Made by a program: the position numbers and the translations under genes. The notes under the pieces were generated by a model. The model was not told the origin of the DNA, made no database searches, and saw only the letters and a program-made list of their open reading frames with translations. From a virus (lineage: Duplodnaviria; Heunggongvirae; Uroviricota; Caudoviricetes): DNA of 5,102 bases. Shown here in pieces: positions 1 to 5,102 of this stretch (the first letter of the stretch is position 1; each line of letters starts with the position of its first letter). The DNA lies in the IMG/VR virus record IMGVR_UViG_2547132272_000019, one strand, 5' to 3'.

Positions 1-106
1 TCGCAATGACGAGATTTATCGCCGTCAGCGACAGATGAAGGACGTGCTGGATAGCCTTAATAATCTTGCCGACATCCGCGCTTTTCAGGCTGGAGAGTCA
101 GAATGA
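1..106 (+). CDS. 3' end of an upstream gene (C-terminal 34 codons, ...RNDEIYRRQRQMKDVLDSLNNLADIRAFQAGESE*); start lies outside the window; product unknown
   Basis: Open frame from position 2 to a TGA stop at 104-106. The stop overlaps the ATG at 103-105 of the next gene (ATGA), indicating translational coupling in one operon. Confidence 0.5.
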   Translation, partial: RNDEIYRRQRQMKDVLDSLNNLADIRAFQAGESE

Positions 107-816
107 AATGGGAAAAGGCAATTCTGCGCCCGTCAGCCATGAACATTAAATGCTCTGTGGTTTGCCTGCATCCATGGTCAGAAAATACCGGAAACATCAA
201 ACCATCGGGGCGTTATCTCAGCCCCGAAAATGCTGTATCTGCACTTTTACCCTATCTGAAAGAAAACACAGAAAAGGACATTGTGGCGCTGTTATTTTGC
301 GCTCCTTCTGCTGGCGAGTTTTTATCACTCGCCAGGCAATTTTCAGGCGCATTTCCGTTGCCGGAGGTGGGACGAATGTCCCGCATGATCTCCAGCCAGC
401 TTTCACTGGCCATCAGCAGAATGCAAATCCCCGCCAGACCGGCAACATCACTTCCGGAACCGATAATGCTGTCGACACAGACCACTCGCAGCATGTCGCT
501 GGCGGCAACCATTGCACAGGCAGCCACTCCTGCCGCCACATCACCGGAAACACTGTCATCATCACTGCATCAGTTCATGAATGCGAGAGATAAAGCTCTA
601 CAGGAAATCGCTGATCAGCAGGCTGCACTCCGGCAAAAATTTTGCCCGGTGTGGCGCTTTTGCTACAAGGGAGCCCTCAGCCAGGCCGCAGTGCTGATAC
701 AAAAAAACATCCCACACCCTGAGTGGGTTTTTACAGCTGTGATGCTGTTCGTCGGCGATGATCTCTCATCACTAAGGGAGGCACTACATGACCCAGATGA
801 TTGTCCTTGCGCTTGA
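103..816 (+). CDS. hypothetical protein, 237 aa, with a central Ser/Thr/Ala/Pro-rich low-complexity segment; possibly part of a phage-tail-like module
   Basis: ATG 103 overlaps the upstream stop (ATGA). GGAG at 92-95 sits 7 nt upstream. Same strand and coupled with the following genes. No family recognised from the sequence. Confidence 0.55.
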   Translation: MKWEKAILRPSAMNIKCSVVCLHPWSENTGNIKPSGRYLSPENAVSALLPYLKENTEKDIVALLFCAPSAGEFLSLARQFSGAFPLPEVGRMSRMISSQLSLAISRMQIPARPATSLPEPIMLSTQTTRSMSLAATIAQAATPAATSPETLSSSLHQFMNARDKALQEIADQQAALRQKFCPVWRFCYKGALSQAAVLIQKNIPHPEWVFTAVMLFVGDDLSSLREALHDPDDCPCA

Positions 817-1363
817 CGGGGAAGCCATTCTGCTGCGCAACATCACCGTCAGCGCCACCATGCAACTACCGGACAAAGATATGTCCGGACAGTCAACCAG
901 CACCACGAGCGCCCAGCAGGGAAGCAAGGCTAAAGAGCTGCGCGTGTCGGGGGTTATTGATTTTAACGATGAAGCTATTCTGACCCGTATTTTTCAGCTT
1001 GCGGAGGCAACAGAAAGCAATGGCGCGAAAAAAACATATCGCATTGCTAACGCTACCGCGAAGGCAATCAATATGCGACAGGGGGTATTTTCTGGTGGCA
1101 TTGATGCCACGGAACAACAGGGAAAAATGCACTGGCAGGTCACCTTTACTCTCAGGGAAAAATTAAGCGTGCCAGAGAAAGCGTCTGCACGTAGCGGTTC
1201 GCAGAAAACCATCGCCAGACAGCAGACCCAGAACGGTAGCGAACAGGCACCAGACAAAGGCATGAATACGCAAAGTTCGTTCTGGAAAAAAATCAATGAT
1301 GCCGTTGGCTCTGGTCTGGATGCTGTTGGTATCGGGAGCGTGAAAGAGGAAGGGAAAACATGA
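788..1363 (+). CDS. hypothetical protein, 191 aa; possibly part of a phage-tail-like module
   Basis: Strong Shine-Dalgarno AAGGGAGG at about 773-780, 7 nt before ATG 788. The TGA stop at 1361-1363 overlaps the ATG 1360 of the next gene (ATGA). The 29-nt overlap with the previous gene is consistent with an operon. Confidence 0.65.
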   Translation: MTQMIVLALDGEAILLRNITVSATMQLPDKDMSGQSTSTTSAQQGSKAKELRVSGVIDFNDEAILTRIFQLAEATESNGAKKTYRIANATAKAINMRQGVFSGGIDATEQQGKMHWQVTFTLREKLSVPEKASARSGSQKTIARQQTQNGSEQAPDKGMNTQSSFWKKINDAVGSGLDAVGIGSVKEEGKT

Positions 1364-3057
1364 AATTGATACAACGCTGCATGATTAATGGCGAACGGGT
1401 GGAAATTGCCGATATAAACCTTGTTCTTACCCTGAATGCTGCCGGTCGTGGCTTCATTTCTGTTAATAATCTGTCACCAGAAAAAAGCCTTGCCGGCGCA
1501 ATGGTACAAATTGATCTCGGCCGTGACGGTGAAGTCTGGCGCTATTTCTCCGGCTACGTTGAACGCGACCAACCCGCCGAAAATGGTTCGCGCCGCCTTT
1601 TTATCCGTGAAGCAGCTGCTGTGCTGGATTTTGATTTCCCCTGCTCCATGCAACACCCGACGTTGCGGGAGGTGTTAGATAATCTGGGACGACAAAGCGG
1701 CATCGTTTTTATCACCCCGGACGCGGATTATGTCAACACACCAACCCCCTACATCACCCACAGCGGCAGCGGAACGCAGCTACTCAGCCAGCTGGGGCGC
1801 GCATTCAGTATCAGCGATTACGTCTGGCACCCAATGCCGGACGGTTCTGTATTTGTGGGAAGCGCCGCTGATTCACGATTTGCCAGTATTACGATGCCGG
1901 ATATTCCGCAACAGTACGCTCTCGGGCAAAGCGGCGGAAACAGCATCGACATCATGTTCATGGAAACTGTGCGACCGGGCGTGAATCTTCCCGCCGGGCG
2001 TATTACCCGCGTAGCCCTCAACAACGAGAAAATGACTCTGACGTGGGAGCGCCTTACCGTCACGGGCAGCCCTGTCTCCAAATCACCATTACGCAGACAG
2101 ATGGAAACACAGTTCCCGGAACTGGCCAGCGGCACACTACACACCAGGCTGGCGCGCGTCATTGCACCAACGGAATCCGCCACCCTGGGCGATGTGGCCG
2201 ACAGCTTCCGTCCACGCTACGCCGTGGACGTGCAACTGCTCGATGAGGACGGCAACGATAAAAGCGATACGCCTGTTTACCCGGCAGTCCCACTCCCCGT
2301 CCCGATGGCTGGTAGCGAGGCGGGATGTTTTGCCTACCCGCCGGCAGGCACCATCGTGGAAATATCTAACATTGAAGGGCGCCCGGATAAACCTGTTATC
2401 AGGCAAATCTTACCCGCTGGCCATAACCTGCCTGATGTAAAGCCCGGCGAACAACTGCAGCAACAGCGCGCAGAAGTGTTTCAGCGCGTCACGACTGACG
2501 GAAGCTGGCACAGAGAAACAGACCAGCAAATCAGGGAGCAGTCAGCCACCCGCACAATCAACAGTGATGCAGAAGAGCGCACCACAACAACCAGAACAAC
2601 CACAGTACGGGCAAACGACATAACCAGTGTTCTGGGAACCAGCAAGCTGGCGGCAGGACAAATAGAGCACCTTACTACCGGCCATTACGCGATCGCAGCC
2701 AGCGAGCATATCCAGATGGTAGCGCAGGATTTGCTGACTAAACTCAAAGGAGCAATATCCACGATTGAGCAGGACCTGACTGAAAACGTGGGAGGCCGCA
2801 GAATATGCCGGGCGGACGGCGGTCTGAAGTTTACAGCCCCGACAGTATTTATTGGTCGCGGTGGCTCACGGGAAAAATCCGAACTTAATCTGCTGACGTT
2901 GTTGATTGATATTCTGGATCTGATTCAATTGCTGGCCACGCACACAGCAAACCACACCCACAGCAACACTGGCGCACCAATGAACAGCGGCGAACTTGCC
3001 GCAGATGCCCTGCAGGCTACGAGCCTGCGCGAAAAATACGGCGACCTTATCGCCTGA
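1360..3057 (+). CDS. 565-aa protein, putative phage tail / baseplate-hub (P2 gpD 'late control D'-like) protein; family assignment tentative
   Basis: Long ORF with SD GAGGAAGGG upstream and an ATGA overlap with the preceding gene. The N-terminal segment INGERVEIADINLVLTLNAAGRGF matches, from memory, the I-x-GE-x-V-x-I-...-L-x-L-...-RGF pattern of gpD-type tail proteins. Contains a TTTTRTTTV low-complexity stretch and a His-rich C-terminus (HTANHTHSNTG). Followed by an intrinsic terminator. Confidence 0.5.
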   Translation: MKLIQRCMINGERVEIADINLVLTLNAAGRGFISVNNLSPEKSLAGAMVQIDLGRDGEVWRYFSGYVERDQPAENGSRRLFIREAAAVLDFDFPCSMQHPTLREVLDNLGRQSGIVFITPDADYVNTPTPYITHSGSGTQLLSQLGRAFSISDYVWHPMPDGSVFVGSAADSRFASITMPDIPQQYALGQSGGNSIDIMFMETVRPGVNLPAGRITRVALNNEKMTLTWERLTVTGSPVSKSPLRRQMETQFPELASGTLHTRLARVIAPTESATLGDVADSFRPRYAVDVQLLDEDGNDKSDTPVYPAVPLPVPMAGSEAGCFAYPPAGTIVEISNIEGRPDKPVIRQILPAGHNLPDVKPGEQLQQQRAEVFQRVTTDGSWHRETDQQIREQSATRTINSDAEERTTTTRTTTVRANDITSVLGTSKLAAGQIEHLTTGHYAIAASEHIQMVAQDLLTKLKGAISTIEQDLTENVGGRRICRADGGLKFTAPTVFIGRGGSREKSELNLLTLLIDILDLIQLLATHTANHTHSNTGAPMNSGELAADALQATSLREKYGDLIA

Positions 3058-3095
3058 TCACCTGGACATAAAAGCCACATAAACGCCCATCACAC

Positions 3096-3123
3096 AACGC
3101 ACGGCTTCGGCCGTGCGTTTTCA
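3096..3123 (+). terminator. Rho-independent terminator of the + strand operon
   Basis: Perfect 10-bp inverted repeat aacgcacggc (3096-3105) / gccgtgcgtt (3110-3119) with a TTCG tetraloop, followed by a T-run; lies 39 nt after the stop at 3057. Confidence 0.7.
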
Positions 3124-3188
3124 TATCTGCCACCTGATTAATGCGTTCTGCGCGCCATTCTGGCGCTGTATGCGCACACCGCGTAAAC

Positions 3189-3218
3189 GGTGTGACGTAA
3201 AGCGTGAGGTGACGTAAA
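3189..3218. repeat. tandem direct repeat GGTG(T)GACGTAAA, two copies about 19 bp apart; possible protein-binding sites
   Basis: ggtgtgacgtaaa at 3189-3201 and ggtgacgtaaa at 3208-3218; a further CGTAAA at 3182-3187 sits in the loop of a 7-bp hairpin (cacaccg/cggtgtg, 3175-3194). Confidence 0.4.
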
Positions 3219-3324
3219 CCGCGCTACCCCCTCCAACCCGCGGGTTTTGTGTCGAAACACTTTTTCAGTTTTCTGCCGTGCAAAAATGACCGCCAGCCCG
3301 CGCAGCGACTGAGGGAAAAGCGAA

Positions 3325-3583
3325 GATCTGAAATTTCACGCTTTGAAATTTTTTGCAGTTTTCAGCGAGTTTTTTACGATCTCATAAATGGCAGGAGCAA
3401 TGAAACCGCATGATATTAAAAGAGTTTTCATACTTTACGCGAGACAAAAAAACGATCACGAAAGGATCGCATCAAACAACCATCAAACAGCGAAGTCAGA
3501 CGCGGCGCGGCCTGCGTAAAATTGAGAGTCAAAATTAAACTGAAAAAAGGATCAATACCGCGCCTCGATCGCGCATGACGATC
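3325..3583. repeat. GATC-dense, AT-rich block (7 Dam sites in about 260 bp) with short direct repeats
   Basis: GATC at 3325, 3378, 3454, 3465, 3550, 3567 and 3580, versus about 8 in the remaining ~4.8 kb. Includes catcaaaca x2 (3469-3491), an imperfect repeat ttttt(g)cagttttc (3262-3282 vs 3350-3370), and an A7 run plus 5-bp hairpin at 3446-3469. Confidence 0.5.
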
Positions 3584-3600
3584 TATGCAGCAACAGGACG

Positions 3601-3623
3601 AAAAAAACCGGCGCGAACGCCGG
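3601..3623 (-). terminator. Rho-independent terminator on the - strand
   Basis: GC-rich 6-bp stem ccggcg (3608-3613) / cgccgg (3618-3623) with a CGAA loop. On the - strand it is followed by U7 (the + strand A-run at 3601-3607); on the + strand there is no U-tail. Confidence 0.55.
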
Positions 3624-3664
3624 CGGAAGCATGTATCAAATGCGTGACTGAATAATGTCTGCGG
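3601..3664 (-). ncRNA. candidate ~60-nt small RNA, divergent from the hok promoter; function unknown
   Basis: A - strand promoter-like pair lies about 7 nt upstream of the predicted start, and the strong - strand terminator at 3601-3623 lies about 60 nt downstream. No ORF with an RBS in between. Confidence 0.35.
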
Positions 3665-3670
3665 TCGGGA

Positions 3671-3700
3671 ATTTTACATCAGAAGGCTGATAAGTCTCAA
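3671..3700 (-). promoter_or_regulatory. sigma70-like promoter for the candidate sRNA
   Basis: Read on the - strand: -35 TTGAGA (+ strand 3695-3700), 18-bp spacer, -10 TAAAAT (+ strand 3671-3676). Back-to-back with the hok promoter. Confidence 0.35.
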
Positions 3701-3704
3701 CGGA

Positions 3705-3734
3705 TTGAAACAAGGGAAAAAACCAGGCTAGAAT
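3705..3734 (+). promoter_or_regulatory. putative hok mRNA promoter
   Basis: -35 TTGAAA (3705-3710), 18-bp spacer, -10 TAGAAT (3729-3734). Predicted start near 3741 coincides with the 5' element that pairs with the mRNA 3' end. Confidence 0.4.
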
Positions 3735-3784
3735 TCGCGCGGGTGCCTTTCGGCTGATGGCTGGAGGGAATACCCGAAGGCCGA

Positions 3785-3970
3785 ATGTGGAAAGGCCCCG
3801 AGTCAACTTTAACGTTAACCCGAGGCCCTAGCCATACAACCTTCGCAAGTCGTAGGTTAGCGCCTCCCCGAAAAAGGAGCAAGCGCTATGTCGCAAAAAT
3901 CGCTTACGGCCATTACGTTCTGCGTAACGGCAATCCTCATCATCTGGATGCTACACGGTTCACTGTGTGA
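3785..3970 (+). CDS. mok-like overlapping reading frame (61 codons) for translational coupling to hok
   Basis: ATG 3785 preceded by GAAGG (3776-3780). The frame overlaps the hok start and ends inside hok in a different frame, matching hok/mok architecture. No independent homology recognised. Confidence 0.35.
   Translation: MWKGPESTLTLTRGPSHTTFASRRLAPPRKRSKRYVAKIAYGHYVLRNGNPHHLDATRFTV
3786..3847 (-). ncRNA. Sok-like cis-antisense antitoxin RNA (about 60 nt); boundaries approximate
   Basis: Expected by hok/sok architecture. A - strand promoter candidate overlaps the hok SD. The extended hairpin at 3794-3827 is fully paired only on the - strand transcript (G-U wobbles there are C/A mismatches on the + strand) and is followed by UUU on the - strand. 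Confidence 0.3.
3854..3882 (-). promoter_or_regulatory. candidate Sok promoter
   Basis: Read on the - strand: -35 TTGCTC (+ strand 3877-3882), 17-bp spacer, -10 TAACCT (+ strand 3854-3859). It overlaps the hok SD region. An alternative pair is -35 TTGTAT (3834-3839) with -10 TAACGT (3812-3817). Confidence 0.25.
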
Positions 3971-4028
3971 GATACGGATGAGCTTCTGGGGAGCGGAGTT
4001 TGCGGCGTTCTTACAATGTAGACAGTAA
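3888..4028 (+). CDS. hok: Hok/Gef-family type I toxin, 46 aa (MSQKSLTAITFCVTAILIIWMLHGSLCEIRMSFWGAEFAAFLQCRQ); specific paralog not determined
   Basis: AAGGAG at 3874-3879, 8 nt before ATG 3888. N-terminal hydrophobic transmembrane stretch, then the Hok hallmark SLCEIR and a C-terminal E-x-AAF-L motif (compare Hok ...[22 protein letters not shown]). The ORF is below the size cut-off of the supplied track. Confidence 0.75.
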   Translation: MSQKSLTAITFCVTAILIIWMLHGSLCEIRMSFWGAEFAAFLQCRQ

Positions 4029-4114
4029 GAAAACCGCGACGGGGAAGGCAACTTCCCCGTCAATCGGTTGCCAGGGTAAGGCCGATAAGGCACCCTATAC
4101 ACATCCCAAAGCAG

Positions 4115-4151
4115 AAACCCGCAGCGTAAAACTGCGGGTTTTCTTTTTCTT
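4115..4151. terminator. bidirectional intrinsic terminator shared by the hok mRNA (+) and the convergent yidD-like operon (-)
   Basis: 10-bp stem aaacccgcag (4115-4124) / ctgcgggttt (4132-4141) with loop CGTAAAA. On the + strand it is followed by TCTTTTTCTT; on the - strand by CUGCUUUG. It lies 7 nt from the yidD-like stop at 4158. Confidence 0.65.
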
Positions 4152-4157
4152 ACGCGC

Positions 4158-4391
4158 TCACGATTTGCGACATTTACAAATATGAGGAGGGTAATCTGCA
4201 CCACCATTAGGCGGACGACAGCGATAAATCCGGCTCAATCCTAATCGCCAGCCTTCAAAAAAGCCATAGCGCCTTATTGACACCAAAGTGTAAGCCGAAC
4301 AGCTTGGAGTATAACGACATCTGTTACGAATGCTGGCTGGCGCATGAGCACGATAATAAAGAATCAGACGTATACTAAGCCATTTAAGCAT
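4158..4391 (-). CDS. YidD-family protein (PF01809, putative membrane protein insertion efficiency factor paralog), 77 aa
   Basis: Translation contains the YidD signature ...RCRYTPSCSAY...GW.L...RI.RC.P...GG.D.P and aligns well with E. coli YidD as recalled from memory. Its start overlaps the stop of the upstream 80-aa gene by 8 nt. Confidence 0.7.
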   Translation of the reverse strand: MLKWLSIRLILYYRAHAPASIRNRCRYTPSCSAYTLVSIRRYGFFEGWRLGLSRIYRCRPPNGGADYPPHICKCRKS

Positions 4392-4626
4392 CTGATACTT
4401 TTTTTCTAAAAGTAATCACATAGTATTGAAAAAACTGCGCCTTTCCGCCACCGAAACACCCCGGCTGCTCTTCTATACCAATCGTATCAACCCGTTGAAA
4501 TTCCCAGCCATCCGCCGCCTGTTCATTAACAACATTCTGAAGATATGCAGCAGCTACCCCCGCTTTATTATCTTTTGCCTTTACAGAAATATTCGGCGGC
4601 ACCTGAATCATTTTATAGGTATACAT
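4384..4626 (-). CDS. small conserved hypothetical protein, 80 aa (possibly DUF4177-like)
   Basis: Strong SD AAGGAG 8 nt upstream of ATG 4626. Translationally coupled to the yidD-like gene. Compact globular-looking sequence with a GWE motif; the family call is from memory only. Confidence 0.55.
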   Translation of the reverse strand: MYTYKMIQVPPNISVKAKDNKAGVAAAYLQNVVNEQAADGWEFQRVDTIGIEEQPGCFGGGKAQFFQYYVITFRKKVSDA

Positions 4627-4772
4627 TACCTGAGCTCCTTTAATAAAAAAGACAGTAATAAACGCCCTAAAACAGCCCGCACCTCACGATGCGAGCATTA
4701 GATCACTATGGCAATATGTGGACAACGCGAAAAATAATCCATTATTTTTCATTGCATTACAGCAGTTTTCGT

Positions 4773-4788
4773 GCCACCCGAAGGTGGC
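4773..4788. other. GC-rich stem-loop in the ytfP / downstream-gene intergenic region
   Basis: gccacc (4773-4778) / ggtggc (4783-4788) with a CGAA loop, just after the ytfP stop. No U-tail on the - strand, so it is not a canonical ytfP terminator; it may be an RNA-stability or attenuator element. Confidence 0.3.
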
Positions 4789-4797
4789 GTGTTTATA

Positions 4798-5102
4798 TTA
4801 TGACTTATCCCTGTCTAACCAGTCGCCGCTTTCAATCAGCGTTAATCCATCGACGGGTCGTTGATAAACGTACATCCATGCACTCCCGTACGGCGTCTGA
4901 ATCAACTGGCGCGCGTATTCACCGCCCCTGGTGCGCAAGGCATCAAGTTCGGCCAGCGTGGCGTTGTCAATACGATAAACTTCACCGTGTACCGTTCCGT
5001 TTCCCGGAACTGCGCCTGGATAGTGGCCCAGGCTATACAACTGGTAGTTATCGATACTGAAATCGCCCAGCAACTGGGCATTGGTCATCCAGTGGCTGGG
5101 GG
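4798..5102 (-). CDS. ytfP: gamma-glutamylcyclotransferase-family (AIG2/GGCT-like) protein YtfP, 3' portion; start lies beyond the window end
   Basis: Translation ...SHWMTNAQLLGDFSIDNYQLYSLGHYPGAVPGNGTVHGEVYRIDNATLAELDALRTRGGEYARQLIQTPYGSAWMYVYQRPVDGLTLIESGDWLDRDKS* matches E. coli YtfP as recalled from memory. The frame stays open to the window edge upstream of the track's Met at 5088. Confidence 0.8.
   Translation of the reverse strand, partial: PSHWMTNAQLLGDFSIDNYQLYSLGHYPGAVPGNGTVHGEVYRIDNATLAELDALRTRGGEYARQLIQTPYGSAWMYVYQRPVDGLTLIESGDWLDRDKS

Follow-up and report, generated by a model that had tools for sequence, protein, structure and literature searches.

The window, by which we mean the whole stretch of 5,102 nucleotides that was analysed (IMG/VR record IMGVR_UViG_2547132272_000019), carries two small overlapping genes on its minus strand. 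Gene A (4384..4626) encodes an 80-aa DUF4177-like protein, as judged from the ORF list, from profiles and from its match to phrog_12383. Gene B (4158..4391) encodes a 77-aa short YidD-family protein, identified from the ORF list, PF01809 and TIGR00278. The start codon of gene B lies within the 3' end of gene A, in an overlap of 8 nt (ATGCTTAA, 4384..4391, minus strand). A Shine-Dalgarno sequence, AAAGGAG (4635..4641, minus strand), is located 8 nt 5' of the gene A ATG and is identical in phage P88 and in the loci L001 and L004. Because gene B lacks a Shine-Dalgarno sequence of its own, its translation probably depends on that of gene A, with the overlap serving as the point of translational coupling. 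On the opposite strand, a gene for a Hok/Gef-family toxin (3888..4028, plus strand, phrog_251) converges with the pair. An earlier sequence-only reading had described the YidD-like ORF as coupled to an 80-aa gene and convergent with hok, and both parts of that description held.

Two hairpins flank the pair. The first (4114..4142) begins 16 nt past the gene B stop codon and has T-runs on both strands; from its sequence it is likely a bidirectional terminator that closes both the A-B operon and hok. The second (4675..4696, minus strand) is GC-rich, is followed by TGTTTT and lies between the att junction described below and the gene A Shine-Dalgarno sequence. It is kept in P88, L001 and L004, and the base changes preserve pairing when the four sequences are compared by eye; it may act as a terminator or an attenuator, or form a structure in the 5' leader. 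No candidate 5' of gene A in this window passed a sigma-70 promoter scan. The window also gave no match in a tRNA scan or to Rfam at the gathering threshold. In Salmonella, Enterobacter and Pantoea copies (L143, L008, L009 and L013, read by eye), a promoter-like TTGAGY-17 nt-TACCAT arrangement stands about 40 nt 5' of the DUF4177-like start, set in otherwise variable sequence; this motif is missing from the upstream region of the window type.

Position of the pair in the prophage

The pair is the terminal cargo of an integrated prophage of the P2/HP1 family (Peduoviridae) that lies in the ytfP terminator. Similarity to K-12 in the window is confined to 4773-5098, where the identity is 96.6%, and this segment corresponds to ytfP and the first 28 nt past it. 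Prophage DNA ends at 4772 and K-12 similarity begins at 4773. The 14 bp at 4773..4786, GCCACCCGAAGGTG, constitute the att core (attR), which falls within the ytfP terminator hairpin, and the same 14 bp are present in the empty K-12 site. The GenBank record of phage P88 ends exactly at the position equivalent to window 4772 and begins with GCCACCCGAAGGTG. The 4772/4773 junction, together with the att core, places hok, gene B and gene A inside the prophage, with the gene A start about 146 bp from attR. The host gene ytfP (4798..5102, minus strand, GGACT family, 96.6% identical to K-12) is truncated at the end of the window; the 96-aa ytfP ORF of the ORF list begins at an internal ATG.

At the other end of the window, the plus strand from 103 to 3057 is occupied by prophage tail and baseplate genes recognized by profiles and PHROGs. 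These include genes for a 237-aa protein (phrog_31292/1677), an HP1_ORF34 baseplate protein (788-1363) and a 565-aa baseplate protein (phrog_2258). No convincing ORF occurs in the roughly 830 bp that separate hok from the last of the baseplate genes (3058-3887), although promoter-like sites in divergent orientation (3671-3734) and a number of terminator-like hairpins are present. This stretch gave no Rfam match, and no Sok-like RNA family was detected in it. By analogy with HP1, the phage cos site could lie in this stretch. The cassette of about 1 kb that holds hok, B and A (3717-4772) recurs at 87-90% identity in P88 and in further E. coli prophages, and is found on differing prophage tail ends of either the gpD-ogr type or the HP1_ORF34 type.

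The sequence-only reading had placed the pair downstream of ytfP as a stand-alone chromosomal locus. That ytfP adjoins the pair upstream is correct; the chromosomal, stand-alone status is not, since the pair lies inside the prophage. Given this location, and given that the pair is found at yecA, yeaE and raiA in other genomes, ytfP is an accidental neighbour. In K-12 the ytfP hairpin (L007, around 3237-3290) is followed by GTTGTTTTTTGCG, and in the lysogen phage DNA, ACGAAAACTGCTG, stands in place of the T-run. Because integration replaces the T-run of the terminator, read-through from ytfP is conceivable; judged from these sequences, integration may weaken ytfP termination and allow transcription to continue into the prophage cargo.

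The two proteins

Protein B passes the curated cut-offs of both relevant profiles, with 64.4 bits against PF01809 (cut-off 27) and 67.3 bits against the equivalog model TIGR00278 (cut-off 40), which confirms the earlier assignment of the 77-aa ORF to the YidD family. It contains the motifs CR[FY]xPSCSxY and RCxxPNGGxD, and the three cysteines, Cys25, Cys31 and Cys58, are invariant or nearly so in alignments of 94 and 110 sequences. The consensus of the relatives of B reads ...AP.R.R..CRFEPSCS.YA...KYGF..GW.....RI.RC..PNGG.DYP. The pI of the window protein is 10.4 and that of its relatives is about 10. Its C-terminal tail, HICKCRKS, is without counterpart in most relatives, which are 67-71 aa long. 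A search with the B profile returned 1192 proteins at E<=1e-10, and the names given to them by their sources include "uncharacterized 7.9 kDa protein in int-C1 intergenic region" and "hemolytic domain protein [Caudoviricetes]". No PHROG was assigned to B.

The proposed site of action of canonical YidD is the YidC/Sec insertion machinery, and the protein is described as peripherally membrane-associated through an amphipathic N-terminal helix. Reportedly, insertion that depends on YidC is more efficient with YidD, which touches membrane proteins while they are nascent (Yu et al., 2011). YidD appears as a listed interactor of the Sec/YidC network, with in vitro transport and cross-linking data (Yu et al., 2011). 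Protein B shares with canonical YidD the curated family profiles, the core motifs with their three conserved cysteines, the small size and the basic character. Whereas canonical YidD has 85 aa, most relatives of B have 67-71 aa, and the two are only 35% identical; B also lacks the N- and C-terminal extensions of the canonical protein. The contexts differ as well. Canonical yidD lies in the order rpmH-rnpA-yidD-yidC, whereas B is never beside rnpA or yidC, travels on mobile elements and always follows a DUF4177-like gene. Of 5426 E. coli genomes, 5425 have a single copy of canonical yidD, and about 0.5% have B. The window copy lies outside the rnpA-yidD-yidC cluster, as had been pointed out from the sequence; it resides in a prophage near hok and att, with the canonical copy elsewhere. 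An HMM built for the subfamily gives its members a median score of 115 bits, against 65 bits for E. coli YidD. On these scores the relatives of B form a distinct subfamily, clearly apart from canonical YidD.

An AlphaFold2 model of B has four helices with a pLDDT of 76. The predicted N-terminal helix spans residues 2-16 (pLDDT about 80), and its hydrophobic moment is low (0.16). Foldseek comparison of this model with the PDB gave nothing significant, and the matches to VapC and other addiction-module proteins (E above 7) were dismissed as noise. Sequence-profile searches of the PDB turned up no solved structure in the family of A or in that of B.

Protein A scores 22.1 bits against DUF4177 (PF13783), just under the gathering score of 25. 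A profile assignment of both proteins had been proposed as a check, and it was obtained for B above the PF01809 cut-off and fell short of the threshold for A itself. DUF4177 is matched at E<=0.01 by 66 of the 67 close relatives of A, the best at 3e-6, and the RefSeq name of the A orthologues is "DUF4177 domain-containing protein". The PHROG of A, phrog_12383, is a family of unknown function. The AlphaFold2 model of A shows a beta-alpha-beta-beta fold with a pLDDT of 85, and the protein is predicted to be soluble. The top matches in a BFVD fold search were phage DUF4177 proteins at E of about 2e-3. Foldseek against the PDB gave nothing significant for A, the uL23- and Alba-like matches (TM 0.25-0.4) being noise, and neither profiles nor fold search matched A to a DNA-binding fold or a toxin-antitoxin (TA) family. 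Identity among A proteins exceeds 50% across phyla. Elsewhere, many metagenomic proteins combine the A domain with N-terminal zinc ribbons, with a C-terminal SH3 domain or with a membrane anchor. In a set of fusion proteins (P0198-P0300) the DUF4177-like domain is highly conserved, with the pattern YxYKMVQIPP...GWEFYRVD...YYVVTFRR, and the zinc-ribbon fusions have long low-complexity or coiled-coil linkers.

Distribution and linkage of the pair

Among 5426 complete E. coli genomes, at least 28 have the pair, which occupies no fewer than three different integration sites. In all four E. coli regions that were inspected the pair is the last cargo at the prophage end, and the sites are ytfP, yecA and yeaE; a Salmonella copy is located at raiA. 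Absence or pseudogenization in most relatives had been named beforehand as evidence against a meaningful pair. Absence from most E. coli genomes is literally what was found, while the copies that are present are mostly intact and under purifying selection, so that the rarity reflects accessory mobile-element status and not a non-gene. A protein search of 50,697 phage records found both proteins together only in P88 and HP1, which makes the pair accessory within the Peduoviridae.

The pair of coliphage P88 is 92% identical to that of the window at the protein level. In the P88 record (NC_026014.1) the B ORF (35210-35432) is without annotation and aligns in two pieces, so that a frameshift or a truncation is probable; gp53, the DUF4177-like gene upstream of it, is intact. 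In HP1, orf3 is 57% identical to A and orf2 is 47% identical to B. The HP1 genes run leftward in the tightly packed order cI-orf4-orf3-orf2-orf1-int behind the annotated PL promoter. By identity and gene order, A-B is judged orthologous to HP1 orf3-orf2, as two contiguous genes in the same order in a temperate Peduoviridae phage. A suggestion from single-linkage clustering that HP1 orf4 is a second DUF4177 copy was discarded, as BLASTP shows no similarity. The arrangements differ in one major respect. Whereas the HP1 pair lies between cI and int in the PL operon with orf1 next to it, the pair of the window and of P88 lies across attP from int, and in the prophage it is at the end opposite int and beside hok. 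The circular order of the P88 type is C-int-attP-A-B, with all genes co-directional, and integration therefore puts the pair at the far end of the prophage. The hok gene is missing from the yecA variant, the yeaE variant and HP1. In L004 (6216-7648) and L143 (6371-7374), additional cargo separates the pair from the tail end of the prophage, namely a gene for a YafO-family toxin and, upstream of it, a partner gene; the partner in L004 is labelled "SufA" by RefSeq, which looks like a misannotation. In a plasmid collection, six Klebsiella records (H86-H91) encode a protein 60% identical to A, and one of these records, at 5.37 Mb, is probably a chromosome.

Relatives of A were sought more widely by pattern scans followed by tblastn confirmation. 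There were 141 in species-representative genomes and a further 55 in IMG/VR contigs. The hosts include Enterobacterales, Pasteurellaceae, Pseudomonas, Paraburkholderia, Halomonas and Vibrio, as well as metagenome-assembled genomes of Acidobacteriota, Chloroflexota and Calditrichia. Among the 131 loci with enough downstream sequence, 113 have a short YidD gene directly 3' of A on the same strand. The reverse test with the B profile placed A directly 5' of B in every one of the 77 viral loci with room upstream. The coupled pair extends over Gamma-, Beta- and Deltaproteobacteria, Bdellovibrionota and Bacteroidota. The distance from A to B ranges from -7 to +42 nt by tblastn hit coordinates and from -29 to +3 nt once start codons are refined, the commonest junctions being -8, -4 and -1 nt. 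In comparisons with unsaturated dS, dN/dS is 0.03-0.10 for both genes, a range that indicates strong purifying selection on each. Given these dN/dS values and an adjacency that recurs in more than 110 loci of distant taxa, the sequence evidence identifies the pair as real genes and as more than a chance arrangement.

A few loci have a disrupted B next to an intact A (P88, L089, L043 and L075). Where A occurs without B, its partners are a 49-55-aa CxxCxGxG mini zinc-finger protein, a 75-95-aa protein, a 136-144-aa protein with a hydrophobic stretch, or a 207-aa protein that is TIR-like by the look of its sequence. Loci with A and no B include L057, L058, L061 and L142, and the Budvicia loci L017, L019 and L039.

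The neighbourhoods of the pair fall into several kinds. A P2-like prophage of Vreelandella has the order S24 repressor, 189-aa gene, A, B, 251-aa gene, and a lambdoid prophage of Alcaligenes has S24 repressor, A, B, 252-aa gene. Together with HP1, these make three phage backbones in which the pair follows an immunity repressor on the same strand. A conserved third member after the pair was considered and rejected, the downstream genes being mutually unrelated; in HP1 (orf1), Vreelandella, Alcaligenes and Marinobacter each of them has at least one predicted hydrophobic segment. Many genomic copies are two-gene islets surrounded by unrelated, ordinary genes of the chromosome, and phage genes are missing from the 6 kb around them. 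The idea that the pair is always phage-borne was accordingly dropped: P88 or HP1 proteins were matched at only 7 of 80 species-level loci, and in-house HMMs detected an integrase at 6/80 and an S24 repressor at 5/80. The 148 genes adjoining 16 of the loci, classified with Pfam, belong mostly to housekeeping families such as transporters and metabolic genes, and tRNA genes lie within 6 kb at only 9 of 60 loci. Frequent TA neighbours of the pair are hok, YafO, HigB/HTH and ParE-like genes.

Possible roles of the pair

From the comparisons above, we conclude with high confidence that temperate phages and other mobile DNA carry the pair as an accessory operon that is both conserved and translationally coupled. 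As to its role, we favour an accessory module that lysogens would express and that would work at the inner membrane in exclusion, defence or maintenance of the element, and we would put the probability of this reading at roughly 45%. A and B would be made together through translational coupling and would very probably act as a complex. Expression in the lysogen is suggested because of the position near repressor, att or int, the accessory spread, the exchange among phage backbones and the TA-rich surroundings. The target would be the inner membrane, possibly the YidC/Sec insertion machinery, because B belongs to the YidD family. The benefit to the element would lie in superinfection exclusion, anti-phage defence or maintenance rather than in housekeeping insertion of membrane proteins. 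The many copies among ordinary chromosomal genes imply that such a module is not strictly a phage function.

The lambda rexAB genes are exclusion cargo expressed in lysogeny from behind cI. The pair occupies the same positions as known exclusion and defence cargo (lambda rexAB, the P2 hotspots and the K139-like cI-int hotspot), either behind a repressor or beside att and int, and it resembles such cargo in its accessory distribution and its exchange among phage backbones. The cI-int interval of K139/HP1-like prophages is a hotspot of anti-phage systems (Rousset et al., 2022; PMC9122126). Unlike known defence cargo, the pair has no known defence domain, and PADLOC run on A, B, HP1 orf4 and HP1 orf1 gave no match. 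This PADLOC result weighs against the favoured reading, as does the fact that the PHROG family of A has no function attached to it. The failure to find a sigma-70 promoter 5' of A in the window, where a terminator-like hairpin stands instead, leaves expression in this particular lysogen without support from the scan, and the hydrophobic moment of the B N-terminal helix gives membrane association no support. In the P88-type arrangement, the pair might instead be expressed from the C-int promoter across attP, and then only in the circular, non-integrated state.

A more specific form of the favoured reading is that the DUF4177-like protein and the short YidD constitute a widespread, previously undescribed two-protein mobile-element system, in which a YidD-fold protein, retained or guided by its obligate partner, would target either the inner membrane itself or the YidC/Sec insertase and would thereby exclude or abort rival phages or enforce maintenance of the element. 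We offer this version tentatively, as a good deal less probable than the general module.

The chief alternative is a module of the TA type, serving addiction or abortive infection, in which the basic protein B perturbs the membrane and the upstream protein A neutralises it. The layout resembles that of type II TA modules, with two small co-directional overlapping genes, the putative neutraliser first, and one Shine-Dalgarno sequence and one terminator for both. As with type II modules and hok-sok, the spread is patchy, over prophages and isolated islets, and other TA genes (hok, YafO, HigB, ParE-like) are close by. The linkage is also asymmetric in the expected direction: B is never without A in the 77 viral loci, whereas A occurs alone or with other small partners, and the disrupted copies hit B while A stays intact. 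The families themselves point the other way. A is far more conserved than typical antitoxins, has neither a DNA-binding fold nor a TA family match, and its domain is also fused into many unrelated proteins. B matches no toxin or defence model in Pfam, NCBIfam or PADLOC, and canonical YidD is non-toxic in the cells that carry canonical yidD. On balance we regard a TA-like function as unlikely, if still a serious competitor.

An auxiliary insertion helper, in which a phage YidD-like factor and its partner aid YidC/Sec insertion of a holin, of Hok or of a variable downstream membrane protein, appears more doubtful. It would account for the passing score of B against the YidD equivalog model, for the variable genes with hydrophobic segments 3' of the pair in HP1, Vreelandella, Alcaligenes and Marinobacter, and for the adjacency of hok in the E. 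coli cassette. Against it, the host already has yidD, the downstream genes are mutually unrelated and missing in this window, phage membrane proteins are not encoded near the isolated copies in chromosomes, and the obligate DUF4177 partner is left unexplained.

A decaying hitch-hiker without current function would fit the disrupted copies and the failure to find a promoter in the window, and is very improbable in view of the dN/dS values and the retention of the coupled pair across classes of Proteobacteria, Bdellovibrionota and Bacteroidota. Equally hard to credit is a chromosomal YidD paralog tied in function to its ytfP/tamAB neighbours or to Hok sensitivity: the pair is co-directional with tamA-tamB-ytfP and the lost T-run makes read-through conceivable, but the empty-site comparison contradicts a chromosomal origin by placing the pair inside the prophage boundary, the host neighbours in other strains and species are unrelated, the ytfP-flank query matches every one of the 5398 E. 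coli genomes, out of 5426, in which the pair was not found, and the yecA and yeaE variants and HP1 have no hok.

YidD is nearly universal in bacteria and poorly understood; Yu et al. (2011) is the single functional study cited in the literature covered here. If the two-protein system set out above is real, the short YidD subfamily would be the first tractable genetic handle on the YidD fold, and a phenotype for the pair (phage exclusion, toxicity with rescue or altered YidC substrates, for instance) would provide a function for two uncharacterised families and for HP1 orf2 and orf3. A literature search (DUF4177; YidD with phage or prophage; HP1 orf2/orf3; P2 hotspots) found no paper on the pairing, the subfamily or its function; matches that combined "YIDD" with anti-phage refer to a reverse-transcriptase motif and not to the YidD protein. 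What is already known is that both proteins are annotated in RefSeq and that the HP1 genes are hypothetical proteins in GenBank. RefSeq names the prophage B genes "membrane protein insertion efficiency factor YidD", as it does the housekeeping gene, and in other records, that of P88 among them, the YidD-like ORF is often not called.
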